64,000 nt of DNA, taken from positions 28,560-92,559 of the forward strand of contig DASZIT010000052.1 in the NCBI GenBank assembly GCA_035948855.1, written 5' to 3'. Origin of the DNA: Acidimicrobiales bacterium. Its GTDB lineage: Bacteria > Actinomycetota > Acidimicrobiia > Acidimicrobiales > RAAP-2. Shown piece by piece: positions 4,915-64,000 of this stretch (position 1 is the stretch's first letter; each line of letters opens with the position of its first letter). The position numbers were made by a program, and so were the translations under genes. The notes under the pieces are model-generated. The model did no database searches. It was not told the DNA's origin and worked only from the letters and a program-made list of their open reading frames with translations.

Positions 4915-4918
4915 ACCC

Positions 4919-5266: not shown

Positions 5267-5357
5267 ACTCTTCGCGCTCTTACAACCAGCCTGGCGCATA
5301 CATCGAGATCCGTCAATGTATGCGTCGCCGCCATCGCTGCCCTCTTGGTACGTGATC

Positions 5358-48112: not shown

Positions 48113-49509
48113 CGGGGAGCCGGGACTTTATGACGGCGCAAGGTATTGATGGTCATTGACTTCCCCACCTCGAGCAGCAGCCCCGAGCTCCGCTCGGCAT
48201 CGCCGAGGACGTCATCGAGGGCCGACACGAACAGCTTGATCTCCGGTTCACCGATGATGAGGGGGGGTAGCAGTTTGATGATGTTGACGTTGTCGGCCGC
48301 CACCTGGGTGAGGATGTGATGGCGGTGGAACAGCGGCACCACGATCAATTGCGAGAACATCCCTTTTCGGGCCAGCTCCATCAGCCGGTACCGGGTGCGC
48401 GGGCCACGGCCGGAGGGGGCGGCGAACTCCAACCCGATCATCAGGCCCATGCCCCGCACCTCCTGGAGTACTTCGTACTTCGCCACCAACGGGGCCAACG
48501 CCTCCATGAACCGCTCCCCGTTCCGCCGGGAGCGTGCCACGATGTCCTCGTCGTCGATGACCCCGAGGGTGGCCAAGCCGGCCACCATCGCCAGCTGGTT
48601 CCTCGAGAAGGTGGACGAGTGCACCACCGCCCGGTCCATGGTGTTGTAGACGGCGTCGAACACCTTGGCCGAAGTCAGCACCGCGCCGACCGGAATGTAG
48701 CCGCCGGACAGCGCCTTCGACACCGTGATGATGTCGGGTTGCAGGTCCCAGTGCTCGTGGCACAGGAACCGGCCGGTGCGCCCGAGGCCGGTCTGGACCT
48801 CGTCGATGACCAGCAGGGCGCCATGGGTCCGACACAGGGCCTGGGCTTCCGGCCAGAACCCGTCGGGAGCCATGTAGACCCCCTTCCCCTGGATGGGCTC
48901 GACCACGAAGGCGGCAACGTCTCCCCGCCCCAGCTCTCGGGCCAGGGCATCGAGGTCCCCGAAGGGGATCTGGTCGACCTTGGGCAGGAGGGGTTCGAAT
49001 CCGTCCCGGAACTCGCGTCCGCCGTTGAGCGAGAGGGCACCGTTGGTGAGCCCGTGGAACGCGTGGTCGCAGTAGAGGATCCGTCCCCGGCCGGTCGCGC
49101 ACCGGGCGAACTTGATGGCGGCCTCGGTCGCCTCCGCCCCCGAGTTGGTGAAGGTCACCCGCTCGATCCCCGGGTGGGTCCTGGCCACCAGGGCTTCGGC
49201 CAGAAGCCCGGGAAGCAGGGCGCAGTCGAGCTGCACCATGTTGGGCAGATCGGCGTCGAGCGCCTGATGGAGGGCGTCCTTGATGACCGGGTGGCTCCGG
49301 CCGAGAGCGTAGACGCCGAAGCCGGAGAGAAAGTCGAGGTAGCTGTCGCCCTTGTCGTCGACCAGGTACGACCCCTCGCCCCGCACATAGTGCCGGTCGA
49401 AGCCGATCGTACGGAGCACCTTGACGAGCTGCGGGTTCAGGAATTGGGTGTGCAGGTCGAAACTGTCCCGTTGGTATCCCCCCAGCACTGCGTTCAGATC
49501 GAACGCCAT
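48109..49509 (-). CDS. Class III (ornithine/putrescine-type) PLP aminotransferase
   Basis: FTNSGAEATEAAIKFAR, IDEVQTGLGRTG and PLP lysine in ITVSKALSGG. ATG at 49509. Confidence 0.88.
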   Translation of the reverse strand: MAFDLNAVLGGYQRDSFDLHTQFLNPQLVKVLRTIGFDRHYVRGEGSYLVDDKGDSYLDFLSGFGVYALGRSHPVIKDALHQALDADLPNMVQLDCALLPGLLAEALVARTHPGIERVTFTNSGAEATEAAIKFARCATGRGRILYCDHAFHGLTNGALSLNGGREFRDGFEPLLPKVDQIPFGDLDALARELGRGDVAAFVVEPIQGKGVYMAPDGFWPEAQALCRTHGALLVIDEVQTGLGRTGRFLCHEHWDLQPDIITVSKALSGGYIPVGAVLTSAKVFDAVYNTMDRAVVHSSTFSRNQLAMVAGLATLGVIDDEDIVARSRRNGERFMEALAPLVAKYEVLQEVRGMGLMIGLEFAAPSGRGPRTRYRLMELARKGMFSQLIVVPLFHRHHILTQVAADNVNIIKLLPPLIIGEPEIKLFVSALDDVLGDAERSSGLLLEVGKSMTINTLRRHKVPAPR

Positions 49510-49712
49510 CGATGGACTCCTGTTCTGCGGTTCACGCTTCGGTGCCGGACGTGGCGGGTGCGGCCATGGACGCCGGCGTGTTGGCGCCCGCAAGCCGTCG
49601 CCCACCAGCGGGGCCACAATAACGCCACCCGACCTCCCGGCCCGCTCGCTGTCACTCCCGAGCCGATGACGGCAACGATCCCTACGGTCAGTGCAACCGC
49701 GCGTACGCTCCG

Positions 49713-50978
49713 TCAGGTGCAGGCGGAGATGTCGATGCCGTGGGTCCCGGTCGGCTGATATGGGTCGGGAGCGGCGACCCCGGCGAACCGGTCGGAGATC
49801 CAGTGGACCATGTCCGGCACTGACACCGCGATCACGCCCGCGTGGTTGAACCCCGGGTAGACCCAGCGCTGCGCCTCCTGGCCGATGGCGCACTCGTGCT
49901 GCTCGAGTATCTGGGTGGTCGCCACCGGGATCTGCTCGTCGGCGCCCCCCTGGATGATGAGCAGCGGCGCCGGGCTGGCGGTGGTGAGTTGCCCGGGGTC
50001 GTTGGCAATCTCGAGTTGCTTCCAGGCCGGAACCGTGGAGGGGTCAACCTTGATGAGCTGACTGGTCGAATACTTCTGGGTCTGGGCGGCGATGTAGCCG
50101 GAGCAACCCTGCTCGAGGATGGGCAGCAGCGAGATGGCCTTGGGCGTGGCCACCTCCGACAGCGGGGCCACGGTGTTCCCGTAGGCACTGTTCCAGCCGG
50201 CACCGACCATCAACAGGTAGTACTTGAACGGGCTGGTCTTCAAGAAGTCGTAGATGAACTGGAACTGGGAGGGCGGTGCCCCGGCGACCACTCCCTTGAG
50301 GGTCAGCTCCGGTGCGTAGGTGCCCCCGATGGCCAACGAGAACATGGCGGTCTGGCCGCCCTCGGAATGGCCCCACACCACGTAGTTGGTGCTGGCCCTC
50401 GCCGCCGCCAGGTGCCGGGCGGCGCGCACGATGTCGATGGTGTTGCGGGCGGCCGAGACACCCACCACATACGGCAACAACCCGGGAGTCCCCTCCCCCT
50501 GGTAGTCGCTGGCGGTCACCTCCCACCCCTGGGCGAGGAGCGCGTTCTGCTCGGGCACCGCGCTGGCCGGTGCCAGTGATGGCGCACACTGGTCGGCCAT
50601 GCCGTTGGTGCCGTGCCCCCAGCTGACGATCGGATACCCGGTGGCCGGCGCCGGGGTGTTCGGGACCATGATCAGTCCGGTGACCAGAACCGGAGCCCCG
50701 TGGACGTCCTCGGACACGTACATGACCCGGTAGACGGTTCCGTGAATCGCTCCGCTCGGGACCTTCTCGGATTTGATCAGTGCACCCGGGGTGTTCGACG
50801 GGAGCTTGTTCGGCACCGCGTAGAAGGAGGGCATGGTGAACGACGGGCTCGCCGATGACCCACACCCGCTCACCGCCAGCCCGGCCACCAACGCCAGCGA
50901 ACCGATGGCGGCCAGGCGGCCCAGGCGACGGTGCCTCCGCCTTCCGACCCGGTACCCAGCCAGCTTGACGTGACGCAT
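49713..50978 (-). CDS. Secreted lipase-family alpha/beta hydrolase lipoprotein
   Basis: Lipobox LAVSGC and nucleophile elbow VVWGHSEGGQTAM. 421 aa. Confidence 0.8.
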   Translation of the reverse strand: MRHVKLAGYRVGRRRHRRLGRLAAIGSLALVAGLAVSGCGSSASPSFTMPSFYAVPNKLPSNTPGALIKSEKVPSGAIHGTVYRVMYVSEDVHGAPVLVTGLIMVPNTPAPATGYPIVSWGHGTNGMADQCAPSLAPASAVPEQNALLAQGWEVTASDYQGEGTPGLLPYVVGVSAARNTIDIVRAARHLAAARASTNYVVWGHSEGGQTAMFSLAIGGTYAPELTLKGVVAGAPPSQFQFIYDFLKTSPFKYYLLMVGAGWNSAYGNTVAPLSEVATPKAISLLPILEQGCSGYIAAQTQKYSTSQLIKVDPSTVPAWKQLEIANDPGQLTTASPAPLLIIQGGADEQIPVATTQILEQHECAIGQEAQRWVYPGFNHAGVIAVSVPDMVHWISDRFAGVAAPDPYQPTGTHGIDISACT

Positions 50979-51047: not shown

Positions 51048-52526
51048 CTACGAGTGGGGCTTGGAGACGACCCGGACGTGTTGCGAGCCGTGCACGCTCC
51101 CGACCACGAAGGAGTAGAAGTGATAAGGCGTCGCCTTGTCGTCGAGGAAGTACGCGACGCAGACGTGGGGACCGGAGGCCGGATTGGTGCAGCCGTTCTC
51201 CGGAAAGATACGGACGTTCGTCTGGCTCGAAACGTCCCAGCCGTTGCCGAATTGATCGAAGCCCTCGACGGTGGTCGTCGCTGCGGTACTGATCGTCAAG
51301 GTTGTCGGCAGGACAACCACCCTCACCAGCGAAGCGTGACCGATGTGGATCCCGGTGGCGGTGCCGGTGATGGTCGGATGGGCGGTGTCGGTGGCGGTCA
51401 GCGACAGGTCGCCCTCCTTCTCGAACCGGATTTCGCTGTGGAAGGTGTGCGATCCCTTGTCGGCCGCGGTGAACGTGTAGTCGTGCGGAACCACCCCCGG
51501 CTTCGAGCCCTGGAACTTGACCGTGCCCCGGTAGCCGGTGGCGGTGGTCCCGGCGGCGTCCTTGGCCGTCAGCGTCAGGTCATAGGAGGTTCCGGCGGTC
51601 ATCGCCTTCGGGGAATCGACGGTGAGGGTGTTCGCCGGTTGGATGACGTGGTCGGGCGTGATGCTCACCTCGGGAGCGCCGAGGTGCGGCGTCACGATGA
51701 TCTGGACACGAGGGATGATGAAGCTGGATCCGGCGCCGCCTCCGCCGCCACTGGTCCCCTCCGATCCGGCGCCGCCGCCCCCGCCGAAGTAGCCACCTCC
51801 GCCCCCGCCGCCGCCTCCGGCCAGATTCGGCAGGAGACCGGCTCCCCCGTTGCCGCCGCCGTAGCGTCCTCCGCCCTTCCCGTCGCCGACCAGCGGGCTG
51901 CTGTTGTGACCGCCCGCCCCACCGCCGGTGAGGGTACCGCCGTGCCCGCCCTCCGGGGTCCCCAACGACTCCGACCCGTTCTGGCCGTTCAGCGTTCCCG
52001 GGGGATTCTGGGGTCCGCCGACCCCGCCGCCGGTGCCGCCCCCACCGCCGGCGGCGATGACCAGATGGGCTCCGTCGGCGGCCTGCACGTAGGAGAACCC
52101 GCCACCGCCACCCCCGCCCTTGGAACCATCCCCGCCGCCGTTGTAGCCGCCGTGACCGGAGTTCGGATGCTTCCCGCCGCCTTCGCCGGTCCCGCCGTCA
52201 CCGCCGACCACCACCCGGAGTTGCGAGCCGGGGGTCACCGAAATGGAGTGGGCGGTGACCTCGATGCCGCGCCCACCCACCGCCCGGTAGCCGTGGCCGC
52301 CGTTGCCTCCGCTGGCCACCACCGTGACGCTGTCGACATCGTTGGGCACCGTGTAGGACTCCGGGTGTCCGGTGTATTTGAACACCTGGGTGGAGAGCTT
52401 GGCGGTGTGGGTGGGAGCGGCCCCGGCGGGTCGGGCCGGGCCGATAAGGGTGGCGGTGGCCAGCACCATCGCCACCACCACCGCGATCACGGCGGTCATC
52501 CGTTGCCGCCCTCCGAAAGCCTTCAT
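51048..52526 (-). CDS. Secreted glycine-rich-domain protein with Ig-like C-terminal region
   Basis: Signal peptide MKAFGGRQRMTAVIAVVVAMVLATATLIGPARPAGAAP. FKYTGHPESYTVPNDVDSVTVVASGGNGGHG...VTPGSQLRVVVGGDGG is followed by G7-G9 runs. The C-terminal roughly 200 aa are beta-rich (TLTVDSPKAMTAGTSYDLTLTAKDAAG...). ATG at 52526. Confidence 0.75.
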   Translation of the reverse strand: MKAFGGRQRMTAVIAVVVAMVLATATLIGPARPAGAAPTHTAKLSTQVFKYTGHPESYTVPNDVDSVTVVASGGNGGHGYRAVGGRGIEVTAHSISVTPGSQLRVVVGGDGGTGEGGGKHPNSGHGGYNGGGDGSKGGGGGGGFSYVQAADGAHLVIAAGGGGGTGGGVGGPQNPPGTLNGQNGSESLGTPEGGHGGTLTGGGAGGHNSSPLVGDGKGGGRYGGGNGGAGLLPNLAGGGGGGGGGYFGGGGGAGSEGTSGGGGGAGSSFIIPRVQIIVTPHLGAPEVSITPDHVIQPANTLTVDSPKAMTAGTSYDLTLTAKDAAGTTATGYRGTVKFQGSKPGVVPHDYTFTAADKGSHTFHSEIRFEKEGDLSLTATDTAHPTITGTATGIHIGHASLVRVVVLPTTLTISTAATTTVEGFDQFGNGWDVSSQTNVRIFPENGCTNPASGPHVCVAYFLDDKATPYHFYSFVVGSVHGSQHVRVVSKPHS

Positions 52527-52670
52527 CGCCAATTCCCCTCGGTCCCGTGCCAGCATGCACCAAAGGGCAGATGGACTTCCTCGAATCACCTTCAGTGGTC
52601 AGAAGACTACCCAGCGTGGAATCCATCGTCAGTGCGCCTGCCGCCGGCGATCAGCGGCTGAGTTCGTCGC

Positions 52671-52705: not shown

Positions 52706-53857
52706 TCAGATGTCGAACTTGATCACGCCGCGGATGTTGACCCCGGCGGCCAGGTCGTCGTAGCCGTTCTGGACTTGGTCGAGGGTGTACTCCTGGGTGA
52801 CCAGTTTGTCGATCTCGAGCAGGCCCGCCTGGTACAGGCGGAGCAGGTTGGGGATCTGCACCCTCGGGCTGCACGAGCCGAAGACGGTCCCGAGCAGGGA
52901 CTGATTGAACATGGCGAAGTTGAACAGGTTGAGGCTGACCTCCTCCTGGTTGAACGGGGCGATGGCGGTGGTCACCACCCGGCCGTCCTTGCTGGACAGC
53001 TGCACCGCCGGCCCGATCAGGTCTCCGGTCAGGACGCCGGGGGTGAGGATGACCACGTCGGCCATCCGCCCCTCGGTCAGCTCGGGAAGCAGGAAGGCGG
53101 CGTCGAGGATGGACGCCGCGCCGTGGGTGGCGCCGATCGCCTTGGCCTTCTCCACCTTGAAGGGCAGCGGATCGACGGCGACGACATAGCGCGCCCCGGC
53201 GATCTTGGCCCCCTGGACGGCCCCGGAGCCCACCCCACCACAACCGATGACCACCACCGTTTCGCCCGGCTTCACCTTGGCCCGGTCCACCGCCGAGCCG
53301 AATCCGGTGGAGATACCGCAGCTGATGAGGGCGGCGGCCTTCAACGACGCCCCGGGATCGATCTTGACCAGCGAGGCCTCGTTGGCCAGCACCGAATCCT
53401 GGAAGGTCCCCAGCTGGGTCATCCGGTTCAGGTTCTGACCGTCGAGATGGTGCCGCCATTGACCGTCGCTGAACATCGGACCGGCCAGAATGGTCATGCC
53501 CAGGTCGCACAGGTACTGGCGGCCGGAGGCGCACCAGAAGCAACGCCCGCACGACGGGATGAAGGACATGGCGACATGGTCGCCTTCAGCCAACGTGTCG
53601 ACCCCCGGACCCACCTCGGAGACGATGCCGGCTCCCTCGTGGCCGCCGATGATCGGGAACAGGGACTTGACCCCGAACACCTCGAGCACCTCGGGGGCGG
53701 CATCCATGTCGCCGGTGCGGAGGTGCTCGTCGGAGTGGCACAGGCCGGCGTACGCCATCTGGACCCGTACCTCGTGCGGTCCCGGCGCGTCGACCTCGAT
53801 CTCTTCGACCTTCCAAGGCTCGTGGAGCCCAGTACAGACTGCGGCGCGGGTCTTCAT
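52706..53857 (-). CDS. Zn-dependent alcohol dehydrogenase of the NDMA-dependent/nicotinoprotein type that accompanies mycofactocin systems
   Basis: MKTRAAVCTGLHEPWKVEEIEVD, Zn ligands GLCHSDEH, and Rossmann VVIGCGGVGSGAVQGA. It neighbours mftR. Confidence 0.85.
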   Translation of the reverse strand: MKTRAAVCTGLHEPWKVEEIEVDAPGPHEVRVQMAYAGLCHSDEHLRTGDMDAAPEVLEVFGVKSLFPIIGGHEGAGIVSEVGPGVDTLAEGDHVAMSFIPSCGRCFWCASGRQYLCDLGMTILAGPMFSDGQWRHHLDGQNLNRMTQLGTFQDSVLANEASLVKIDPGASLKAAALISCGISTGFGSAVDRAKVKPGETVVVIGCGGVGSGAVQGAKIAGARYVVAVDPLPFKVEKAKAIGATHGAASILDAAFLLPELTEGRMADVVILTPGVLTGDLIGPAVQLSSKDGRVVTTAIAPFNQEEVSLNLFNFAMFNQSLLGTVFGSCSPRVQIPNLLRLYQAGLLEIDKLVTQEYTLDQVQNGYDDLAAGVNIRGVIKFDI

Positions 53858-53952: not shown

Positions 53953-54666
53953 TCAGGCCCCGGACATCCTCGAAGCCGGATCCCGGTGAACCCAGAGCCG
54001 GAGCCGGTCTTCGTCGAACCCGTCGGCCAGGAGCCGGAACGCCCCGTCGACCTCCCCGGTCAGGTCATCGGTCTCGTGCTGGGCCCAGCAGGCGAACGCC
54101 GCCATCGCGGTGCCCAGCGCCGACCGGGCCACCGCTTGCGGCCCGAGGTCGTCCGGAGACCCGCCGACCCGCCCGGCCACGAAGTCGGCGACCACCTCGC
54201 ACCACTCGGTGTACCTCACCGCCGAGTGGGCCACCAGAGCGGGGACCGTGCTGATGAGGCCCATCCGGATCCGCAGTTCGTCGAGCTCCCCGGCCCCGAA
54301 TCGGTTGGTGGCCACCACCGCCCGCCGCACCACGTCCATCATCGGCTCGTCCTGGGGGGCGCTCATCAACTGGTCGCGGAGCCGGACCAGTTCGGCGTCG
54401 AATTCCCCCCACACCACGTCCCGCTTGGAGCTGTAATAGCGGAAGAAGGTCCGCCGGCTGATCCCCACCGCGGCGGCGATCTCGTCGACGGTGGTGGCGT
54501 CGAACCCGTTGCGTTCGAACAGGTCGAGCGCCAGACGGGCGATCGCCGCCCGGGTGGTGCTGGGGCGCCGGCCGCGGGCCACTTCGGACGCGGCGCCCCC
54601 GACTCCCGCCTCGACCCTGTCGGCTCCCATCGGGTTGGTTCCAGTCACAGACTTCCATTTTGGCAT
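53953..54666 (-). CDS. mftR: TetR-family regulator of the mycofactocin system
   Basis: TTRAAIARLALDLFERNGFDATTVDEIAAAVGISRRTFFRYYSSKRDVVWGEFD. Divergent from mftA. An alternative start is the internal Met at 54630. Confidence 0.85.
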   Translation of the reverse strand: MPKWKSVTGTNPMGADRVEAGVGGAASEVARGRRPSTTRAAIARLALDLFERNGFDATTVDEIAAAVGISRRTFFRYYSSKRDVVWGEFDAELVRLRDQLMSAPQDEPMMDVVRRAVVATNRFGAGELDELRIRMGLISTVPALVAHSAVRYTEWCEVVADFVAGRVGGSPDDLGPQAVARSALGTAMAAFACWAQHETDDLTGEVDGAFRLLADGFDEDRLRLWVHRDPASRMSGA

Positions 54667-54733
54667 CGAGTGCTATAAAGTCAACACACAGTCCGTCATC
54701 CGGCCCGTGCCGGTCGATTTTCCGGAGGTTCCC

Positions 54734-54880
54734 ATGCCTGATCCCGTCATCGAGCACCGCGACCCATCCCCCGCCACCGGCAATCCGGCCGTCGACGAGG
54801 ACGGCGCCGAGCCGTCCCTGGTCGAGGCCGACCTCCTGGTCGAGGACGTGTCCATCGACGGCATGTGCGGCGTCTACTAG
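54734..54880 (+). CDS. mftA: Mycofactocin precursor peptide
   Basis: 48 aa: MPDPVIEHRDPSPATGNPAVDEDGAEPSLVEADLLVEDVSIDGMCGVY. It carries the canonical C-terminal IDGMCGVY. GGAGG lies 6 nt upstream of the ATG. It is hidden inside track ORF 54491..54880. Confidence 0.93.
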   Translation: MPDPVIEHRDPSPATGNPAVDEDGAEPSLVEADLLVEDVSIDGMCGVY

Positions 54881-54893
54881 GCCCCGCCGGCTC

Positions 54894-55196
54894 ATGCCCC
54901 CCACCGTCCCGGTCGGGACCACCGCCTTCGACCCCTCGCTGCCCTGGGCGCTGCACCCCCAGGTGTCGCTCCGGCCCGAGTCATTCGGCGCGCTGGCCTA
55001 CCACTTCGGGACCCGGCGCCTGTCGTTCTTGAAGAGCCCCACTCTGTTGGCGGTGGTCTCTTCGCTGGCCACCCAGCCCACCGGCCGGGATGCCTGCACC
55101 GCGGCGGGGGTGGCCGCCGACGAGCTCCCCTCCTACGAGCGGGCCCTGGCCACCCTGGCCGAGTCCGGGATGATCTGCGAGCGGAGCGCCTCATGA
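54894..55196 (+). CDS. mftB: Mycofactocin biosynthesis chaperone (PqqD-like RRE)
   Basis: 100 aa: WALHPQVSLRPESFGALAYHFGTRRLSFLKSPTLLAVV. It sits between mftA and mftC, with an ATGA overlap to mftC. Confidence 0.88.
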   Translation: MPPTVPVGTTAFDPSLPWALHPQVSLRPESFGALAYHFGTRRLSFLKSPTLLAVVSSLATQPTGRDACTAAGVAADELPSYERALATLAESGMICERSAS

Positions 55197-56419
55197 CCCT
55201 GGTCGCCGCCGAGCGCCCGACCCCCCTCCGGTTGGTCGACCAGTTCCAGCTGGGACTCGATGCGCCGATCTGTCTGACCTGGGAGCTCACCTACGCCTGC
55301 AACCTGGCCTGCGTGCACTGCCTGTCGAGCTCGGGCCGACGCGATCCGAACGAGCTGTCCACCGCCGAGTGCAAGCGGCTCATCGACGAGTTCGAGCGGA
55401 TGCAGATCTTCTACGTCAACATCGGTGGCGGCGAGCCCACCATCCGGAACGATTTCTGGGAGCTGGTCGACTACGCCACCGCCCACCACGTGGGGATCAA
55501 GTTCTCCACCAACGGATCGAGGATCACCCCGGAGGTGGCCGAGCGCCTGGCCTCGAGTGACTACGTGGACGTGCAGATCTCCCTCGACGGTGCCAGCCCC
55601 GAGGTGAACGACGCGGTGCGGGGGGTGGGCTCGTTCGACACCGCGGTCCGGGCCATGGAGCGGATGGCGGCGGCCGGCTTCGTCGGATTCAAGCTGTCGG
55701 TGGTGGTCACCCGGCAGAACGTCTCCCAGCTCGACGCCTTCCAGGCGCTGGCCGACCGGTACCGGGCCCAGCTCCGTCTCACCCGGCTGCGCCCCTCGGG
55801 GCGGGGGGCCGACGTCTGGGACGAGCTCCATCCGACGGCCGAGCAGCAGCGCACGCTGTACGAGTGGTTGCTGGGGCACGGCGAGCAGGTGCTGACGGGA
55901 GACTCCTTCTTCCACCTGGCCGGCTACGGCGAGTCGCTGCCCGGGCTCAATCTCTGCGGCGCCGGTCGGGTCGTCTGCCTGGTCGACCCGGTGGGCGACG
56001 TCTACGCCTGCCCGTTTGCCATCCACGACGAGTTCCTGGCCGGGAACGTGCGCTCGCCGGGAGGATTCGACCGGGTCTGGAAGTCCTCCGTGCTCTTCGG
56101 CGAGCTCCGCCGGCCCGACACCGGAGGCGCCTGTGCCTCCTGCGGGAGTTATGACGCCTGCCGGGGCGGATGCATGGCGGCCAAGTTCTTCACCGGCCTC
56201 CCGCTCGACGGGCCCGACCCCGAGTGCGTGCTCGGCCACGGCGAAGGCAGGCTGGCCGCGGTGGGCGACACCCTCTTGCCCCAGCCGTCTCCCGACCACT
56301 CGCGCCGGGCCCGGGGCTCGGTGGCGCCGGTGGCGGTGGTCCTCCTCCCCCGCCGTCCCGATCGAGCCTGCGACGAGCACCCGCTGGCCGACTTCGGCGC
56401 CGGCCACCGTCCGCACTGA
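55193..56419 (+). CDS. mftC: Mycofactocin radical SAM/SPASM maturase
   Basis: Radical SAM YACNLACVHC (CX3CX2C), YVNIGGGEPT, and SPASM cysteines CGAGRVVCLVDPVGDVYACPF...CASCGSYDACRGGC. Confidence 0.95.
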   Translation: MTLVAAERPTPLRLVDQFQLGLDAPICLTWELTYACNLACVHCLSSSGRRDPNELSTAECKRLIDEFERMQIFYVNIGGGEPTIRNDFWELVDYATAHHVGIKFSTNGSRITPEVAERLASSDYVDVQISLDGASPEVNDAVRGVGSFDTAVRAMERMAAAGFVGFKLSVVVTRQNVSQLDAFQALADRYRAQLRLTRLRPSGRGADVWDELHPTAEQQRTLYEWLLGHGEQVLTGDSFFHLAGYGESLPGLNLCGAGRVVCLVDPVGDVYACPFAIHDEFLAGNVRSPGGFDRVWKSSVLFGELRRPDTGGACASCGSYDACRGGCMAAKFFTGLPLDGPDPECVLGHGEGRLAAVGDTLLPQPSPDHSRRARGSVAPVAVVLLPRRPDRACDEHPLADFGAGHRPH

Positions 56420-56422
56420 CAG

Positions 56423-58381
56423 GTGTCCAGCCTCGTCGACGCCATCTCCGTGGCCGGAAGGACCGCACCCTCGAGGGTGATCTTCGGGCCGCACGAGACC
56501 AATCTGGGCGACGATCGCCGGATCAGCCAACGTCACGTGGCCTACTACCAGGCGAGGGCGGCCGGAGGCAGCGGCGTCATCGTGACCGAGACCGCCTCGG
56601 TGCACCCGTCGGACTGGCCGTATGAGCGGGCGCCGCTGGCCGGCGACTGCGGGCCGGGATGGGCGGCGGTGGCCGCCGGGTGCCGGCCGTACGGCACCCT
56701 GGTCCTGGCCGGGCTCGGACACGCCGGGGGCCAGGGCTCCAGCGCCTACTCCCAGTCGGTGATGTGGGCCCCCTCGAGGGTGGCCGACGCCATCAATCGG
56801 GAGATGCCGATGGAGATGGAGCCAGCCGAGATCGACCAACTGGTGGACGGGTTCGCGGAGGCGGCCCGACTGGCCGTCGACACCGGGCTCGACGGGGTGG
56901 AGATCGACGTCGGCCCCCTCTCCCTGCTGCGGCAGTTCCACTCCGGGCTCACCAACCTGCGGTCCGACGGCTACGGGACCGACAAGCTCCGGCTCACCAA
57001 CGAGGTGGTGGCCGCCGTCCGCCAGGCCATCGGTGCCGATCAGGTGATCTCGGTCCGGCTGTGCTGCGACGAGCTGGCCCCGTGGGCGGGGATCACCCCC
57101 GACCATGCCGCCGATCACGTCGCCGCCCTGGCCGGACAGGTCGACCTGATGGTGGTGGTGCGGGGCGGCCCCTTCTCGGCGGCCGCCTACCGGCCCGACG
57201 CCCACGCGCCTCCCAACTTCAACGCCGACCTCTGCCGGCGGATGCGGGAAGCGGCCGGCGCCCGGATGCCGGTGGTGTTGCAGGGCAGCGTGATCGATCC
57301 GGGTGCCGCCCAGGCGGCGCTGGACGACGGCACCGCCGACCTGGTGGAGATGACCCGGGCCCAGATCGCCGACCCCCGACTGGTCACCCGGGTCCGCGAC
57401 GGCGCCGCCCATCGGATCCGGCCGTGCATTCTCTGCAATCAGGCCTGCCGAGTGCGGGACAACCGCAACCCCCTGGTGAGCTGCGTGGGTGAGCCCCGCA
57501 GCGGTCACGAGACGACCGACCCGGACACCGAGGGCACCGACCCGGTGGTTCACCAGGTGTTGGTGGTGGGGGGCGGCATCGCCGGCCTCGAGTGTGCCCG
57601 GGTGCTGGCCGGACGCGGCCACCGGGTGCGGCTGGTGGAGCGGGGCCCGCAGCTGGGTGGGGCAGCCAAGGCCGCGTCGGTGGGCCCGGGCCGAGCCCGG
57701 ATGGCCGAGCTGAGCGGGTGGCTGGAGGCCGAGGTCCGGGCCGCGGGGGTGGTGGTCGAGGTCGGTACCGAAGTCATCGCCGCCGACCTCGATGCGGCTG
57801 CCGCCTCGGGCGGTTCAGTGGTCGTCGCCACCGGCGCCCGAACACGGCCTCTCGATCTTCCGGTCGACGAGACCGTCACCGTCATCGACGGGCTCTCGGC
57901 GCTGGCCGGAGGGTCGGCCCGGATCCCCGACGGTCCGGTGGCGGTGCACGATCCGGTGGGCGGGCCCGTCGGGGTCGGGGTGGCGGAATGGCTGGCCGCC
58001 GAGGGACGCCAGGTCTCGATCGTCACCCCCGATCCGATCGCCGGCACCCTGCTGGCACTCAGCGGGGACCTGGCCGATGCCAACACCCGGTTGCAGCAGG
58101 CCGGGGTTAGGCGTGAGCTCCGGGCCATCCTCCGCGGCGCCAAGGGCGGCCGGGTCCAGCTCGACGACGTCTGGACCGGCGAGCGGCGGGAGATCGACGC
58201 CGCGGTCATCGTCGACTGCGGCCACCGGCTGCCGGAGGAAACGCTGCACGCGGCCCGGCCCGGCACCCCCCGGGCCGGGGACTGCGTGGCCCCCCGCACC
58301 ATCCTCGAGGCCGTCCTCGAAGGGCGGCGCCGGGCGCTGGAAATCGGGGCCGGGGCCGCCTCCGGGTCGGTGGTCCGATGA
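56423..58381 (+). CDS. FadH/OYE-family flavo-iron-sulfur oxidoreductase 1 (mycofactocin-associated)
   Basis: OYE-like TIM barrel (GVIVTETASVHPS, GLDGVEIDVG), Cys cluster RPCILCNQACRVRDNRNPLVSCVGEP, and dinucleotide fold VLVVGGGIAGLECARVLAGRGHRVRLVERGPQLGG. The GTG start is 3 nt after the mftC stop. Confidence 0.85.
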   Translation: MSSLVDAISVAGRTAPSRVIFGPHETNLGDDRRISQRHVAYYQARAAGGSGVIVTETASVHPSDWPYERAPLAGDCGPGWAAVAAGCRPYGTLVLAGLGHAGGQGSSAYSQSVMWAPSRVADAINREMPMEMEPAEIDQLVDGFAEAARLAVDTGLDGVEIDVGPLSLLRQFHSGLTNLRSDGYGTDKLRLTNEVVAAVRQAIGADQVISVRLCCDELAPWAGITPDHAADHVAALAGQVDLMVVVRGGPFSAAAYRPDAHAPPNFNADLCRRMREAAGARMPVVLQGSVIDPGAAQAALDDGTADLVEMTRAQIADPRLVTRVRDGAAHRIRPCILCNQACRVRDNRNPLVSCVGEPRSGHETTDPDTEGTDPVVHQVLVVGGGIAGLECARVLAGRGHRVRLVERGPQLGGAAKAASVGPGRARMAELSGWLEAEVRAAGVVVEVGTEVIAADLDAAAASGGSVVVATGARTRPLDLPVDETVTVIDGLSALAGGSARIPDGPVAVHDPVGGPVGVGVAEWLAAEGRQVSIVTPDPIAGTLLALSGDLADANTRLQQAGVRRELRAILRGAKGGRVQLDDVWTGERREIDAAVIVDCGHRLPEETLHAARPGTPRAGDCVAPRTILEAVLEGRRRALEIGAGAASGSVVR

Positions 58382-60351
58382 GCGCCGGCAGCCACTACCG
58401 CCATCTGTTCACGCCCCTCCGGATCGGGCCGGTGACGGTCCGCAACCGGATCGTGTTCTCCGCCCACCTGACCAACTACGCGGCCGAGGGTCTGCCCACT
58501 GAGCAGCACGCCGCCTACTACGCGGCCCGGGCAGCGGGCGGCAGCGGCCTGATCATCACCGAGGAGCACTCCACCCACGTCACCGACTGGCCGTACGAGA
58601 AGCTGATCCACGGCTTCAACCCGGCGGTGCTCCCCGGCTACCGGCGCATCACCGACGCGGTGCACGCCCACGACGTGCCCATCTTCGCCCAGATCAACCA
58701 CAACGGCGGGCAGGCGTCGAGCATGTACAGCCGGGTGCCGGTGTGGGCCCCCAGCCCGGTGCCCGACCCCCTGTTCCGCGAGGTGCCCAAGGCGGTCGAG
58801 CTCCCGGAGATCGCCGCGATCGTGGCCGGCTACGCCGAGGTGGCCGAACGCTGCATCGCGGGCGGCTTCGACGGCATCGAGCTCCAGTGCTCCCACTCGT
58901 CCATCGTGCGGGGATTCCTCTCCCCGGCCACCAACCGCCGGACCGACGGCTACGGGGGCCCGCTGGAGAACCGGGCCCGCCTCCTGCTGGAGATCGTCGA
59001 CGCGGTGCGCGAGGCGATCGGCACCGACCGGGCCCTCGGGGTCCGGTTGTGCGGGGACGAGCTCATCGAGGGGGGCACCGGCATCGACGACGCGGTGGCG
59101 GTGGCCAAGATGGTGGATGCCAGCAGCCGGGTCGACTACATCAACACCTCGATCGGGGTGGCCACCGCCACCCTCTACATGATCGAGGCCAGCATGCAGG
59201 TCCCCCCGGGGTACGCGATGTTCATCCCCAGCGCCATCCGCCAGGCCGTCGGTCTCCCGGTGGTCGGGGTCGGTCGGTTCAAGGACCCGTTGCAGGCCGA
59301 CCGGGCGCTCGACGAGGGCCAGTGCGATCTGGTCGGGGTGGTCCGGGGCCAGATCGCCGACCCCGACTTCGCGGCCAAGGCGAGGTCCGGCCACGCCACC
59401 GACATCCGGACCTGTCTGTCCTGCAACCAGGAGTGCGTCGGCCGGATGGGCCTCAACCGGTGGCTCGGGTGCATCGAGAGCCCCCGCACCGGCCGAGAGG
59501 CGATACCGCTGCCACTCCCCCACCGACCGAAACGGGTGGTGGTGGTGGGCGGGGGCCCGGGAGGGCTGCAGGCGGCGGTGACCGCCGCCGAGCGCGGCCA
59601 CCGGGTAGTGCTCTTCGAACGTGAGGACCGGCTCGGCGGCCAGGTGCAGGTGGCGGCCACCGTGCCCAGCCGGGCCGAATTCCTCGACATCGCCCGCAAC
59701 CTCATCGTCAACGCCCGCCGGGCCGGGGTCGACATCCGTACCGGCCACGACGCCGATGCCGACGCGATCCGGGCCGAGCACCCTGACGCGGTGATCCTGG
59801 CCACCGGCGCCCGGCCGTCGCGGCCCTGGTGGGCCGCCGACCATCCCCGGGTGGTGGACGTCCGCGACGTGCTCGAGGGGCGGGTCTCTCCTGCCGGCGA
59901 GGTGGTGGTGGTCGACGAACTCGGCTTCCACCAGGCCACCTCCACCGCCGAGTTGCTGGCCGACCGGGGCTGCCGGGTGGAGATCGTTTCCAACGCCATG
60001 GTGGTGGGCCAGGACCTCGGCATCACCCTGGACATGGAGACCTGGAACGTGAAGGCCCACGCCAAGGGGATCGCCCAGAGCGTGGACCTGGTGCCGATGG
60101 GGGCCGCGCTCCTGGAGGGAGGCACCCATCCCAGCGGGGTCGAGCTCGCCCTCCAGCACCACCCCACCGGTACCGACCAGCAACGCCGGTGCGACTGGTT
60201 GGTGTGTGCCGTCCAGCAGCAACCCGAGGACGGCTTGTGGTCGGAGCTGCGCGACTCGGCCTTCCCCGTCTACCGGGTGGGGGACTGCCTGGCCCCCCGG
60301 CGGGCCCACGCCGCGGTCATCGAGGGCCACCGGGTGGCGGTGGCGTTGTGA
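58378..60351 (+). CDS. FadH/OYE-family flavo-iron-sulfur oxidoreductase 2 (mycofactocin-associated paralogue)
   Basis: GLIITEEHSTHVTDWPY, GFDGIELQCSHSS, TCLSCNQECVGRMGLNRWLGCIESP and VVVVGGGPGGLQAAVTAAERGHRVVLFEREDRLGG. ATGA overlap with the preceding gene. Confidence 0.85.
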   Translation: MSAGSHYRHLFTPLRIGPVTVRNRIVFSAHLTNYAAEGLPTEQHAAYYAARAAGGSGLIITEEHSTHVTDWPYEKLIHGFNPAVLPGYRRITDAVHAHDVPIFAQINHNGGQASSMYSRVPVWAPSPVPDPLFREVPKAVELPEIAAIVAGYAEVAERCIAGGFDGIELQCSHSSIVRGFLSPATNRRTDGYGGPLENRARLLLEIVDAVREAIGTDRALGVRLCGDELIEGGTGIDDAVAVAKMVDASSRVDYINTSIGVATATLYMIEASMQVPPGYAMFIPSAIRQAVGLPVVGVGRFKDPLQADRALDEGQCDLVGVVRGQIADPDFAAKARSGHATDIRTCLSCNQECVGRMGLNRWLGCIESPRTGREAIPLPLPHRPKRVVVVGGGPGGLQAAVTAAERGHRVVLFEREDRLGGQVQVAATVPSRAEFLDIARNLIVNARRAGVDIRTGHDADADAIRAEHPDAVILATGARPSRPWWAADHPRVVDVRDVLEGRVSPAGEVVVVDELGFHQATSTAELLADRGCRVEIVSNAMVVGQDLGITLDMETWNVKAHAKGIAQSVDLVPMGAALLEGGTHPSGVELALQHHPTGTDQQRRCDWLVCAVQQQPEDGLWSELRDSAFPVYRVGDCLAPRRAHAAVIEGHRVAVAL

Positions 60352-61382
60352 GCGGGATGGATCCCGGGCGACCGGTGGCGGTGGTGGTGGCCCGCGACGG
60401 CCGGCTGCCGGTCGGGGCCGACGAGGCGGTGGCCGAGGCCGGGGAGCAGGTGGTGGTGGTCGGCTCCGGCACGGTGGATGCGGCCCGGTCGTTACTGGCC
60501 GCGCAACGGGCGTGGTGCTGCGAGACGGGTCCCGGGTTACGGCCGGGGGCGCTGTCCGGGGTGGTGGCCGACCTGGTGGCCGGGGTGCCACTGGTGGTCA
60601 TGCCCTCGTCCCCCGACGGCCGGGATCTCGCCCCGCGGGTGGCGGCCCGACTGGGGGTGCCCTACATCGCCCACGCCGTCTCGGTGTGCGCCCGGACCGG
60701 TCCGGCGGGATTCCGGGTCGGGGCCGAGGTGTCCCGGCTCGACGACCGGATCCTGGTCCCGGTGACCGTCGACGGTCCGGCGGTGGCCACCCTGGTGCCG
60801 GGGAGCCGCACCGTGGTCCCGGTGGACCGGCCGTCGTCCTGGGAGCCGGAGCTCATCGCTCCGGCGGTGGCGGCACCCCCGGGGGAGCCCGCCACCCCGC
60901 CCGACCCCGAGGTCATCGAGGTGCTGAAACCCGACCCCGCCACCATGGACCTGGCCGATGCCACCCGGGTGCTGGCCGGAGGGGCGGGCCTGGCCGCCCA
61001 CGCCTCCGATCACCGGGCCCGGGCCACCTTCGAGCTCCTGGTGCAGGTGGCGGCGGCGTTGGGGGCGTCGGCCGGGGCCACCCGGGTGGCCACCGACGCC
61101 GGCTGGATCGGCTACGAGCGACAGATCGGGACCACCGGGGTGGCCATCGACCCCGACCTGTACATCGCCTTCGGGGTGTCGGGGGCCACCCAGCACGTCG
61201 GCGGGCTCGGGACCCCCCGGCATGTGGTCAGCGTCAACACCGACCCCTCCTGCCCGATGACGGCGATGGCCGATCTCGGCCTGGTCACCGACGGGCCCGG
61301 GCTGCTGGCCGAGCTGGCCCGGCGGTTCGGCGTCGCCGTCCCGGCCGGCGCCATTCCCGACCCGGCACGAGGCGGGTCGTGA
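60348..61382 (+). CDS. Electron transfer flavoprotein alpha-subunit-like protein (FixB/EtfA-like)
   Basis: C-terminal FAD-binding signature GASAGATRVATDAGWIGYERQIGTTGVAIDPDLYIAFGVSGATQHVGGL. GTG at 60348 overlaps the previous stop (GTGA). ATG 60357 is an alternative start. Confidence 0.8.
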   Translation: MSGMDPGRPVAVVVARDGRLPVGADEAVAEAGEQVVVVGSGTVDAARSLLAAQRAWCCETGPGLRPGALSGVVADLVAGVPLVVMPSSPDGRDLAPRVAARLGVPYIAHAVSVCARTGPAGFRVGAEVSRLDDRILVPVTVDGPAVATLVPGSRTVVPVDRPSSWEPELIAPAVAAPPGEPATPPDPEVIEVLKPDPATMDLADATRVLAGGAGLAAHASDHRARATFELLVQVAAALGASAGATRVATDAGWIGYERQIGTTGVAIDPDLYIAFGVSGATQHVGGLGTPRHVVSVNTDPSCPMTAMADLGLVTDGPGLLAELARRFGVAVPAGAIPDPARGGS

Positions 61383-62707
61383 CCGGGCCGGGTGGGGCGC
61401 CGGGGTCCCCGGTGTTCGACGCGGTGGTAGTCGGCGCCGGGCCCGCGGGATCGGCGGCGGCGCTGGCCCTGGCCCGGGCCGGCCGGTCGGTCGTCCTGGT
61501 CGAGCGCGGGCCGTTCCCCGGCGCCAAGAATGTCTACGGCGGGGTGGTCTACGGACGGGTCCTCGACGAGGTGGTGCCCGGGTGGTGGGAGCAGGTGCCG
61601 GTCGAGCGCTGGGTGGTCCGGCGGTCGACGATGATGATGACCGGCACCCAGTCGGTGTCGCTCGACTACCGGTCGGCGGCGTGGGGGGAGGCCCCCTACA
61701 ACGGGATGACCACCCTCCGGTCGCGGTTCGACAGCTGGCTGGCGGCCAAGGCCGTCGAGGCCGGCGCCGTCCTGGTCACCTCCACCGTCGCCACCCACCT
61801 GTTGCGGGACGCCGGCGGGCGGATCGTCGGGGTCCGCACCGATCGCGAGCAGGGGGAGCTGTGGGCCAAGGTGGTGGTGGCCGCCGACGGGGTCAACTCG
61901 TTCCTGGCCAAGGAAGCCGGGTTGATGCCGGTGGCCGAGGCCTCCCATCACACCCTCGGGGTGAAAGAGGTGCTGGACCTCCCCCGCCAGGTCATCGACG
62001 AGCGGTTCGGCCTGCGGGGGGACGAGGGTGTCGACATCGAGATGCTGGGCTGCACCCGGGGCATCCCCGGGGGCGGGTTCCTCTATACCAATGCCGACAC
62101 CGTGAGCCTCGGGGTGGTGTTGTCGCTGACCCACCTGGCCGAGGCCAAGGTGCGACCCGAGGAGTTGATCGCCGACCTCAAAGCTCATCCCTCCATCGCC
62201 CCCTACCTGCGGGACGCCACCCTGCGCGAGTACTCGGCCCACCTGATCCCCGAAGGGGGCTACGACACCATGCCGGTGATGGTGACCGACGGGATGCTGG
62301 TGGCCGGCGACGCCGCCGGGATGACCCTGGCCGCCGGGCTGTGGCTGGAGGGGGTCAACTTCGCCATCGGCTCCGGTCTGGCCGCCGGTCGTGCCATCGA
62401 CCGGGCCATCACCACCGGCGACTGTTCCGCCCGGGGACTCGCCTCCTACCGGGCCGACCTGGAGGGCCAGTTCGTGCTGGCCGACCACAAACGGCTGCGC
62501 AAGGCCCCGGGGCTGGTGCTGTCCGAGCGGATCCAGCAGCGCTACCCGGGGTTGGTCTGCGACCTGGTGGAGGGGATGTTCACCGTCACCAACCCGACGC
62601 CCAAGCGGGGAGCCTTCCGGGTCACCCGGTCGGCGGCGGCCAAGCACGGGGTCAAGCTCCGGCAACTGGCCGCCGACACCGTTCGGGCGGCGAGGATCTT
62701 CGGGTGA
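61379..62707 (+). CDS. fixC: FAD-dependent ETF:quinone oxidoreductase-like protein (FixC family)
   Basis: FDAVVVGAGPAGSAAALALARAGRSVVLVERGPFPGAKNVYGG, AADGVNSFLAKEAGL and GDAAGM. GTGA overlap with the ETF-alpha gene. Confidence 0.85.
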   Translation: MTGPGGAPGSPVFDAVVVGAGPAGSAAALALARAGRSVVLVERGPFPGAKNVYGGVVYGRVLDEVVPGWWEQVPVERWVVRRSTMMMTGTQSVSLDYRSAAWGEAPYNGMTTLRSRFDSWLAAKAVEAGAVLVTSTVATHLLRDAGGRIVGVRTDREQGELWAKVVVAADGVNSFLAKEAGLMPVAEASHHTLGVKEVLDLPRQVIDERFGLRGDEGVDIEMLGCTRGIPGGGFLYTNADTVSLGVVLSLTHLAEAKVRPEELIADLKAHPSIAPYLRDATLREYSAHLIPEGGYDTMPVMVTDGMLVAGDAAGMTLAAGLWLEGVNFAIGSGLAAGRAIDRAITTGDCSARGLASYRADLEGQFVLADHKRLRKAPGLVLSERIQQRYPGLVCDLVEGMFTVTNPTPKRGAFRVTRSAAAKHGVKLRQLAADTVRAARIFG

Positions 62708-63042
62708 GCCGGGCGGCCGGAGCACTCGGGCGGCCCGACCCGGTGCCGGGTGGCCCATGGCGGGGCATCTCCTTCGAGGACCGGATGGCTACCGTCGAGT
62801 TCCGGGTCGGGGCCCGGGCCCACATCGTGGTCGACTCGGATGTGTGCCGGTCGTGCACCACCCAGGCCTGCGTCACCGCCTGTCCGGCCAACCTCTTCGC
62901 CCCCACCTCGGACGGAGGCATCCTCTTCAACTACGAGGAGTGCTTCGAGTGCGGGACCTGCTACATGATCTGCAACCACGACGGCGCCATCGCCTGGACC
63001 TATCCCGACGGCGGCCAGGGGGTCGTCTTCCACCATGGATGA
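62704..63042 (+). CDS. fixX: Ferredoxin-like protein FixX
   Basis: HIVVDSDVCRSCTTQACVTACPANLF...NYEECFECGTCYMICN. About 112 aa. GTGA overlap with fixC. Confidence 0.85.
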   Translation: MSRAAGALGRPDPVPGGPWRGISFEDRMATVEFRVGARAHIVVDSDVCRSCTTQACVTACPANLFAPTSDGGILFNYEECFECGTCYMICNHDGAIAWTYPDGGQGVVFHHG

Positions 63043-63961
63043 CCGCCGCGACGGCCCGATGGTGGTCGCCTGCGTCCGGATCGGCGACCTCCGGCCCCGG
63101 GTCGATCCGCTGACCGGCGCGGTGGTCCGCGACCAGCTGGGGGCCGGGCTGACGCCGGCCGATGCCGCCGCCCTCGAGTACGCCTTTCGCGTCGCCGGGG
63201 CCTGGGCCGGCCACGTGGTGGTGGTCACCGCCGCGCCTCCGTCGGCCGACCCGTGGCTCCGGGAGGCGGTCGCCCTCGGGGCCACTCCGCTCCGCGTCGG
63301 TGTCGGCGCCCCGTCCTCGGACCCGGGATACGCCGAGCAACTGGGGGCGGACGAGCGGGCCGAGGCCGACGCCATCGCCGCCGCCCTCGCCGGCTACGGA
63401 CGGCCGGCCCTGGTTTTGTGCGGAGACCGGTCGGCGGACCGCGGCACCGGGGCGCTCCCGGCGTTTCTCGCCCACCGGCTGGGGGCGGCCCAGGCGCTGG
63501 GTCTGGTCGCGCTCGCCCCCTCCGACCAGCCGCTGACCCTGGTGGCCGAGCGCCGGCTGGACGGGGGGTGGCGCGAGCGCCTCCGGGTGGCCTGCCCGGC
63601 TGTCTGCTCGGTGGAGGGGGCCGGGATCCGGTTGCGGCGGGCCTCGCTGACCGCCACCCTGGCCGCCCAGGGCACGGTGATCCCGGTCATCGAAGCCGCG
63701 GGCGGACCCGGGGAACCCGGACCCGGTCTGGAATCGGATGGCGGGGTGCGCCCCTTCCGGCCCCGAACCCGGGTGGTCCCGCCGCCGGAAAGCGATGATC
63801 CCCGATTGCGGCTGCTGGCCCTGACCGGGGCACTGGTGGCCCATGACCCGCCCACCGTCATCGGGCCCGTCGACGCGTCGGGGGCGGCCGACGCCCTGTT
63901 CGATTTCCTGAACCGGCACGGCTATCTCGTCGGGCCGACCGACCGCGAGGCGGGGCGGTGA
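63035..63961 (+). CDS. Divergent electron transfer flavoprotein beta-subunit-like protein (FixA/EtfB-like)
   Basis: MVVACVRIGDLRPRVDPLTG, LTPADAAALEYAFRV and LVLCGDRSADRGTGALPAFLAHRLG resemble ETF-beta blocks. It has an extended C-terminus. The ATG overlaps the fixX stop by 8 nt. Confidence 0.7.
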   Translation: MDDRRDGPMVVACVRIGDLRPRVDPLTGAVVRDQLGAGLTPADAAALEYAFRVAGAWAGHVVVVTAAPPSADPWLREAVALGATPLRVGVGAPSSDPGYAEQLGADERAEADAIAAALAGYGRPALVLCGDRSADRGTGALPAFLAHRLGAAQALGLVALAPSDQPLTLVAERRLDGGWRERLRVACPAVCSVEGAGIRLRRASLTATLAAQGTVIPVIEAAGGPGEPGPGLESDGGVRPFRPRTRVVPPPESDDPRLRLLALTGALVAHDPPTVIGPVDASGAADALFDFLNRHGYLVGPTDREAGR

Positions 63962-64000
63962 CCTCGCTGGCCGAACTGGCCTGGCCGGAGGTCGGGAACC
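63958..64000 (+). CDS. mftE: Start of probable mycofactocin peptidase MftE (creatininase fold), truncated by the window edge
   Basis: GTG overlapping the previous stop (GTGA). VTSLAELAWPEVGN matches the L..L.WPE N-terminal pattern of creatininase-family/MftE proteins. Only 14 codons are visible. Confidence 0.4.
   Translation, partial: MTSLAELAWPEVGN

Follow-up and report, generated by a model that had tools for sequence, protein, structure and literature searches.

Alcohol metabolism in mycobacteria and many other Actinomycetota relies on the redox cofactor mycofactocin. The DNA studied here is a 64-kb stretch of ~72% G+C (hereafter the window, meaning the whole of the DNA analyzed) from an Acidimicrobiales metagenome-assembled genome, in which a mycofactocin operon runs up to the downstream edge. 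A scan of its open reading frames (ORFs) against NCBIfam and Pfam identified six genes, all on the plus strand and tightly packed between mftC and mftE at positions 56423-63961, in the operon slot that mftD normally holds. These genes, referred to below as the module, code for two large flavoenzymes (OYE1 and OYE2), the alpha and beta subunits of an electron transfer flavoprotein (ETF; etfA and etfB), and FixC-like and FixX-like proteins. Comparison of genomes and plasmids revealed mutual exclusivity of the module with mftD, the cleanest signal of the analysis, and suggested that the module may take the place of both MftD and MftG. The genes of the region were:

52706..53857, minus strand: Zn-dependent alcohol dehydrogenase of the mycofactocin-linked nicotinoprotein class (TIGR03989, 489 bits; cut-off 440)
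53953..54666, minus strand: mftR, TetR-type regulator divergent from the operon (TIGR03968, 244 bits; cut-off 225; PF17754 MftR C-terminal domain)
54735..54881, plus strand: mftA, precursor peptide with the C-terminus IDGMCGVY (a longer JGI gene call at this place has Pfam PF23709 MftA)
54894..55196, plus strand: mftB, peptide chaperone (TIGR03967, 111 bits; cut-off 33)
55193..56419, plus strand: mftC, radical SAM maturase (TIGR03962, 650 bits; cut-off 265)
56423..58381, plus strand: OYE1, 652 aa (TIGR03996, 956 bits; cut-off 627.9; profile positions 2-633 of 633)
58378..60351, plus strand: OYE2, 657 aa (TIGR03997, 1000.5 bits; cut-off 793; profile positions 1-644 of 645)
60348..61382, plus strand: etfA, mycofactocin-associated ETF alpha subunit (NF038209, 414 bits; cut-off 240)
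61379..62707, plus strand: FixC-like flavoprotein, flavin subunit of an ETF:quinone oxidoreductase (NF007542, 337 bits; under the cut-off of 610)
62704..63042, plus strand: FixX-like ferredoxin with 4Fe-4S binding motifs (NF011993, 53 bits; under the cut-off of 166; Fer4 family matches and a weak PF05187 Fer4_ETF_QO match)
63035..63961, plus strand: etfB, mycofactocin-associated ETF beta subunit with a conserved C-terminal extension (TIGR04503, 332 bits; cut-off 200)
63958..64000, plus strand: 5' end of mftE, cut by the window edge

The ORF map and the family scans bore out the six-gene content that the initial annotation of this DNA had placed in the mftD position. Its putative mftE was likewise confirmed, as the gene continues on a longer copy of the same contig to give a 233-aa protein (TIGR03964, 278 bits), followed by a mycofactocin-coupled short-chain dehydrogenase/reductase (SDR; TIGR04504) and mftF (TIGR03965), all three above curated cut-offs. 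Of the module proteins, OYE1, OYE2, etfA, and etfB exceeded the curated NCBIfam cut-offs of mycofactocin-specific families, in agreement with the family assignment made earlier, and the etfB product is identical to an NCBI protein named [quoted passage not shown] The FixC and FixX identities held in part: both proteins matched generic models only and scored below the curated cut-offs, making them homologues rather than equivalog members. RefSeq annotation of module-bearing Streptomyces plasmids already uses the mycofactocin-specific names and, with the family names present in NCBIfam as well as RefSeq, the bare association of the module with mycofactocin is not new. Literature searches turned up no paper that connects mycofactocin with an ETF or with FixC, and none on the function of the module, in line with the earlier statement that its biochemistry is unpublished, and the exclusive alternation with mftD and mftG was described in no paper found. 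By mechanistic type, the module would belong to the chains leading from a dehydrogenase through an ETF to an ETF:quinone oxidoreductase, here acting on a peptide-derived cofactor.

With the most upstream start codons, the junctions from mftB to mftE are, in order, ATGA, a 3-nt gap, ATGA, GTGA, GTGA, GTGA, an 8-nt overlap, and GTGA. The chain of overlaps and a 3-nt gap described in the initial annotation stands with these starts, whereas the JGI gene caller chose later ones for OYE1, etfA, fixC, and fixX, giving gaps of 5 to 77 nt; the FixX-like start codon is uncertain, being either GTG at 62704 or a later one. A promoter and terminator scan displayed no convincing element internal to the operon, such a scan being uninformative in DNA of this G+C content. 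The mftR-mftA intergenic region (54667-54734) spans 68 bp and carries one promoter-like site, on the minus strand and overlapping the mftR start.

Both OYE proteins contain an FMN TIM barrel, a 4Fe-4S motif, and one dinucleotide fold. Motif mapping together with Pfam upheld the barrel, the cluster motif, the GGGxxG motif, and the paralogy claimed for them, with Oxidored_FMN matches of 118 bits (OYE1) and 206 bits (OYE2), the motifs C335ILCNQACx11C and GGGIAG in OYE1 and C346LSCNQECx11C and GGGPGG in OYE2, and 35% identity between the two over their full length. A motif scan found no second, NAD(P)H-type GxGxxG in a dinucleotide-binding fold in either protein. The alignment with FadH stops before the third domain, which is glycine-poor and aligns with trimethylamine dehydrogenase (TMADH) for OYE2 and with histamine dehydrogenase for OYE1. 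The position of FadH Tyr166, the catalytic, proton-donating residue, is Ser in both proteins, and the active site of OYE1 is remodeled further, with Gly, Pro, and Ser at the positions of FadH Gln100, Glu164, and Tyr166. OYE2 keeps the His and the FMN-contacting Gln, and OYE1 is without either. The stretches ELQCSHSSIVRGFLSP and DELGFH of OYE2 were invariant in 58 orthologues, OYE1 being less conserved, and OYE2 is the probable catalytic subunit. A search of the PDB gave naphthoyl-CoA reductase and FadH as the nearest solved relatives, followed by trimethylamine and histamine dehydrogenase. True membership of the TMADH family was rejected, as the Cys that binds FMN covalently is missing and the Fe-S spacing differs; an ordinary FadH was rejected on the missing NADPH motif and catalytic Tyr.

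One locus (L089, 6426-9521; protein P0169) encodes a 1031-aa fusion in which an OYE1 barrel and Fe-S part, lacking the dinucleotide domains, is joined to a complete OYE2. The fusion is followed by etfA, fixC, fixX, a 166-aa ORF in the etfB position, mftE, and an SDR, and is preceded by an Fe-dependent alcohol dehydrogenase, with no mftABC upstream. It could be real or an assembly artefact; a natural OYE1-OYE2 fusion would support physical association of the pair.

The GATRV, IGTTG, and ATQH motifs of etfA match flavin contacts of human ETF (alpha-R249, T266, and Q285-H286) and are conserved in 64 orthologues; etfA is predicted to carry the electron-transferring FAD, its FAD contacts being intact. 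The etfB family profile scored higher against beta subunits of the bifurcating type (4KPU_B 78, 7KOE_A 59, and 6FAH_B 50 bits) than against canonical ones (43, 42, and 36 bits). The Asp at the bifurcating flavin, D93' in the beta subunit of the Acidaminococcus enzyme and 100% conserved in bifurcating ETFs, aligns with etfB D106, which did not vary across 25 aligned EtfB sequences and was at least 90% conserved among 78 orthologues, and which is necessary, not sufficient, for membership of the bifurcating group. The position of the bifurcating-ETF Tyr37' is Ala in etfB; R130 of etfA is invariant, in a stretch where alignment to the bifurcating-site Arg is unreliable. The nearest solved structure to the FixC-like protein is 7KOE_C, the FixC of the Thermotoga EtfABCX complex (262 bits), with pig ETF:quinone oxidoreductase at 56 bits.

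The distribution of the module was surveyed with an etfB alignment as query and one genome per species; 156 species were found, and the best 80 loci were kept with ~10 kb of flank each. These 80 were nearly all from Acidimicrobiales/Acidimicrobiaceae, plus some Frankia, Pseudofrankia, and Frankiales. All six module genes were present in every one of the 60 species loci whose upstream flank is 9 kb or longer, 57 of which also have mftB and mftC upstream. Where the downstream flank reached 3.2 kb or more, mftE, an SDR, and mftF followed in 63 of 68 loci. Recurrence in 60/60 species loci makes the six-gene arrangement more than chance and agrees with the module being one unit, as first proposed. 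An extra TIGR03971 mycofactocin-coupled SDR lies between OYE1 and OYE2 in 44 of the same 60 loci (in locus L018 at ~4460-5271, 365 bits); it is absent from the window, where OYE1 and OYE2 overlap by 4 nt. Thermopolyspora flexuosa has the module in the same order between mftC and mftE. In several loci from long-read "MFD" genomes (L003, L013, L016, L029, L034, and others), the module tblastn matches were fragmented and frame-shifted, which probably reflects long-read indel errors rather than pseudogenes.

The six genes also occur apart from the biosynthetic genes. In Pseudofrankia inefficax (CP002299), they are accompanied only by an mftR-type regulator of their own, and the surrounding 10 kb contain none of mftABC, mftE, and mftF, which marks the module as a separable unit under mycofactocin-type regulation. 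The module is likewise alone, unlinked from mftABC, mftE, and mftF, in two further loci, L076, where an mftR-type regulator adjoins it, and L078, where none was detected. Plasmids carry the module as well: it was found on six Streptomyces linear plasmids and, in a distant form, on two haloarchaeal mycofactocin plasmids, pHTUR01 of Haloterrigena turkmenica and pCBA1230-01 of Halolamina. The haloarchaeal form has the order OYE2-like (37-38% identity), ETF alpha, FixC-like, ferredoxin, and ETF beta, adjoining mftF, mftC, mftB2, mftA, and mftE. Both haloarchaeal plasmids have a second OYE2-like gene a few kb from the ETF-linked one (L084, 3231-5144, 33% identity; L088, 1-317), embedded among five or six mycofactocin-coupled SDR genes.

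The MftD and MftG probes were first validated on the corresponding models (E. coli LldD 255 bits on the MftD model; BetA 321 bits on the MftG model), with an Rv0694-like probe reaching 730 bits on the former, whose cut-off is 471; actual MftD and MftG proteins from a Streptomyces plasmid served as further probes. None of them matched in the 64-kb window, in its contig extension, or in the module loci with ~10 kb of flank, the fused-OYE locus not being among those screened. No gene for a glucose-methanol-choline (GMC) family oxidoreductase was present in any module locus screened, and the 80 species loci of the genome scan were all free of mftD. Among the 12 mftC-bearing plasmids in the collection, all examined as whole replicons, four carried mftD (Mycobacterium chubuense NBB4, Tsukamurella, Streptomyces NBC_00080, and Thermomicrobium roseum) and eight the module (the six Streptomyces and two haloarchaeal plasmids), with none having both and none having neither. 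This census is suggestive rather than statistical proof because it covers a handful of independent lineages. The most telling evidence of exclusivity is the contrast within the genus Streptomyces, where the NBC_00080 plasmid carries mftR, mftG, mftA, B, C, D, E, and F without the module, whereas that of NBC_00564 carries a glycosyltransferase, mftR, mftA, B, C, the module, and mftE with neither mftD nor mftG. A search of the plasmids with MftG at E <= 1e-60 returned only the query itself, a weak negative given the diversity of MftG families. An unannotated, partial MftD-like sequence (52% identity over 70% of the probe) lies at 139523-140356 on the Sphingopyxis macrogoltabida plasmids NZ_CP013345.1 and NZ_CP009430.1, neither of which has mftC.

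Published surveys have left two gaps in the mycofactocin pathway. MftD was reported not to be universal among mycofactocin species (Haft, 2011), and 17 Saccharopolyspora clusters were described without mftD and with a TIGR03997 gene "with unknown function" (BGCFlow paper); S. erythraea makes methylmycofactocins in oxidized and reduced forms. Around 25% of mftC-positive genomes lack mftG, its replacement having been called an open question (MftG paper, 2025). In the published MftC/MftG table, mftC without mftG is recorded for Frankia, Saccharopolyspora, Aquihabitans, Iamia, Ilumatobacter, Geobacter, Rubrobacter, and Haloterrigena. Taxa that bear the module appear in this list, and the genome of Pseudofrankia inefficax is also given as mftC-positive and mftG-negative. 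The proposal of the initial annotation that the module is an alternative to MftG fits these listings as well as the lack of GMC genes in module loci and the Streptomyces plasmid contrast. Its observation that the module occupies the mftD slot was confirmed, while the question of which protein would then perform the MftD reaction had not been raised.

The reading favored here, with a probability of roughly one half, is that the six genes form an MftR-controlled electron-transfer module running from the OYE proteins through ETF and FixCX to menaquinone, in place of both MftD and MftG. OYE1 and OYE2 would act as a pair, OYE2 likely being the catalytic subunit, and would oxidize carbon 3 of the mycofactocin pyrrolidinone ring at the FMN. 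Oxidation of the amine on this carbon in AHDP, the 3-amino pyrrolidinone that is the MftD substrate, would yield premycofactocin as in the MftD reaction, and oxidation of the hydroxyl on the same carbon in reduced mycofactocin would regenerate the cofactor as in the MftG reaction. A dual role is favored since the module alternates with mftD and mftG jointly and both reactions take place on the same carbon of the same scaffold. That the module probably covers the biosynthetic step too is suggested by its exclusivity with mftD and by the mftD-less, TIGR03997-bearing Saccharopolyspora clusters from a mycofactocin-making genus. In the absence of an NAD(P)H site from either OYE protein, electrons are expected to exit via the 4Fe-4S cluster and reach the FAD of the dedicated ETF, a route suggested by the co-encoding of that ETF. 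TMADH likewise reduces an ETF with electrons from its 4Fe-4S cluster. From the ETF, they would pass to the FixC/FixX pair, acting as a split ETF:quinone oxidoreductase, and on to menaquinone. The conduit outlined in the initial annotation fits the protein features in this respect, namely the lack of an NAD(P)H motif, the intact etfA FAD contacts, and the likeness to 7KOE_C. Reported potentials of -255 mV for premycofactocin (MftG paper, 2025) and -74 mV for menaquinone make the electron flow downhill. Mycofactocin-dependent dehydrogenases are encoded in or beside the operon, namely the TIGR04504 SDR, in many loci the TIGR03971 SDR, and the TIGR03989 dehydrogenase upstream of mftR, a likely producer of reduced mycofactocin.

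Several points weigh against this proposal. The case for all six proteins is drawn from sequence and gene context, and the absence of mftD and mftG applies to ~10 kb flanks, the 64-kb window, and whole plasmids rather than to whole genomes. Among solved structures, OYE1 and OYE2 come closest to reductases (naphthoyl-CoA reductase and FadH) and not to amine dehydrogenases, the Fe-S motif is of the FadH type, CxxCxxxC, and there is no equivalent of TMADH Cys30 for covalent FMN. A low-flux biosynthetic step would hardly seem to call for six genes, and the resemblance of the etfB family to bifurcating-type subunits points to a more complex electron path. Thermomicrobium roseum has mftD but lacks both mftG and the module, so mftG can also be lost without being replaced in this way. 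The Saccharopolyspora support is based on the TIGR03997 gene and not on ETF/FixCX genes (BGCFlow paper), and a homologue search with a Streptomyces OYE2 query returned no Saccharopolyspora among its matches.

The module might replace MftG only, reoxidizing mycofactocinol and feeding menaquinone while the MftD reaction is performed by another enzyme or by an mftD elsewhere in the genome. An ETF with FixCX is a respiratory entry route suited to high-flux recycling of a cofactor, mycofactocin-dependent dehydrogenases are encoded within the operon, and the missing GMC genes and the mftG-negative listing of module-bearing taxa agree with such a role; nevertheless, it is unlikely, since it leaves the strict exclusivity with mftD unexplained both on the 12 plasmids (four vs. 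eight) and across the 80 species loci, and since the plasmid-borne clusters look self-contained yet have no mftD. The converse, in which the module replaces MftD only as an O2-independent AHDP dehydrogenase of the TMADH kind, with electrons leaving via ETF and FixCX and recycling done otherwise, would account for the shared operon slot and the exclusivity with mftD, and draws on a protein family that includes ETF-linked amine dehydrogenases and on the Saccharopolyspora clusters. It is more doubtful still, because a dedicated four-gene ETF and quinone reductase is hard to justify for a low-flux step, two OYE paralogues are conserved in 60/60 loci, the Pseudofrankia module is unlinked from biosynthetic genes, and mftG is absent from module loci as well.

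A bifurcating or confurcating complex of the EtfABCX type is a further candidate, in which a two-FAD ETF would couple NADH or mycofactocin(ol), menaquinone, and a low-potential partner, with the OYE pair as the low-potential branch or the entry point of mycofactocin. The higher etfB scores against bifurcating subunits, the alignment of D93' with the invariant D106, the closeness of the FixC-like protein to the FixC of the bifurcating Thermotoga complex, and the low-potential 2-naphthoyl-CoA reductase (NCR) as nearest solved relative of OYE2 speak for it; the Ala at the Tyr37' position and the bifurcating-site Arg that is not reliably alignable do not, and an NADH site, a second FAD, and a ferredoxin partner are not shown, nor does anything link mycofactocin to the bifurcating site. 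Simple downhill transfer accounts for the data, and the bifurcating complex is considered improbable. In one such scheme, electrons of mycofactocinol (~-255 mV) would be split at the OYE pair, with menaquinone (-74 mV) as one acceptor and a low-potential carrier such as ferredoxin as the other. The scheme is thermodynamically possible, as averaging the potentials of the two acceptors gives a value near that of mycofactocin; it is a long shot, under which alcohol oxidation via mycofactocin would conserve energy instead of draining into respiration. Ordinary fatty-acid or amine catabolic genes, of the dienoyl-CoA reductase type with a housekeeping ETF and its quinone oxidoreductase, lying merely beside the mycofactocin genes, are suggested by the generic names "2,4-dienoyl-CoA reductase" and "N-methylproline demethylase" in some sources and by the reported response of MftR to long-chain acyl-CoA esters (as cited in the MftG paper, 2025). 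This explanation is effectively excluded by the arrangement in 60/60 loci and again on archaeal mycofactocin plasmids, the match to mycofactocin-specific curated models, the missing FadH NADPH motif and catalytic Tyr, and the exclusivity with mftD.

Besides the TIGR03989 dehydrogenase, nothing mycofactocin-related was found in the remaining ~50 kb upstream within the window. Two long ORFs overlap on opposite strands at 51048-52589 (minus) and 51054-52661 (plus), the minus-strand product having a weak match to an ALK/LTK glycine-rich domain (29 bits) and the plus-strand product none. At 47048-49893 on the minus strand, an HpnA hopanoid-associated sugar epimerase (404 bits, above the cut-off) lies beside a class-III aminotransferase (best match the PigE model, under the cut-off), and the region may be part of a hopanoid modification locus.

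The comparative evidence offers one concrete candidate for both gaps, the replacement of MftG and the non-universal MftD. If the module acts as proposed in place of both proteins, mycofactocin systems would come in two types, one based on MftD/MftG and the other on iron-sulfur flavoenzymes with an ETF relay, the latter reaching into the Archaea and perhaps better suited to low-oxygen conditions. Genome-mining rules that require mftD miss module-type clusters. The proposal is testable in cultured strains that carry the module, including Pseudofrankia inefficax, Thermopolyspora flexuosa, several Streptomyces, and Haloterrigena turkmenica, and S. erythraea, with its mftD-less, TIGR03997-bearing cluster, is another candidate for testing the idea directly in culture.

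Among known systems, the OYE proteins resemble TMADH of Methylophilus methylotrophus W3A1 and histamine dehydrogenase in combining an FMN TIM barrel, a 4Fe-4S cluster, and a vestigial dinucleotide fold without the glycine-rich NAD(P)H motif. Both of these enzymes oxidize a C-N bond, and TMADH passes single electrons to a dedicated ETF. The OYE2 matches to TMADH (181 bits) and histamine dehydrogenase (176 bits) were lower than those to FadH or NCR. The differences from TMADH comprise Leu in OYE2 at the position of Cys30, which forms 6-S-cysteinyl FMN, the CxxCxxxC spacing of the module vs. CxxCxxC, two OYE paralogues instead of a homodimer, and a co-encoded FixCX quinone reductase. FadH and NCR (PDB 1PS9 and 6QKG) are the closest solved structures, scoring 270 to 280 bits with OYE2 and 151 bits with OYE1, and sharing the CxxCxxxCx11C cluster motif and an FAD-type GxGxxG in the middle domain. 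Unlike FadH, the OYE proteins have no second (NADPH-binding) dinucleotide motif and have Ser in place of Tyr166, and OYE1 lacks the FMN-contacting Gln and has Pro where OYE2 keeps His; in contrast to the stand-alone NAD(P)H enzymes FadH and NCR, the OYE genes are co-encoded with an ETF.

The Thermotoga maritima EtfABCX/FixABCX complex (PDB 7KOE) has all four of the ETF and FixCX subunit types found in the module, with the FixC-like protein matching its C chain and the etfB profile its A chain, and the same quinone, menaquinone, is expected. The module differs in its alpha-C-X-beta gene order, in etfA and etfB forming their own mycofactocin-specific families with FixC and FixX below curated cut-offs, and in the addition of two large flavo-iron-sulfur enzymes; no evidence of NADH or ferredoxin coupling was seen for it. 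MftD (an FMN-dependent premycofactocin synthase with an alpha-hydroxyacid-oxidase-type barrel) and MftG (a GMC flavoprotein) have no sequence relationship to the module, which has six subunits, iron-sulfur clusters, and an ETF relay. Nevertheless, the module shares with the mycobacterial MftD/MftG system the mftD operon slot, the same regulator, and the same two proposed oxidations with a link to respiration, and the two are distributed as strict alternatives.

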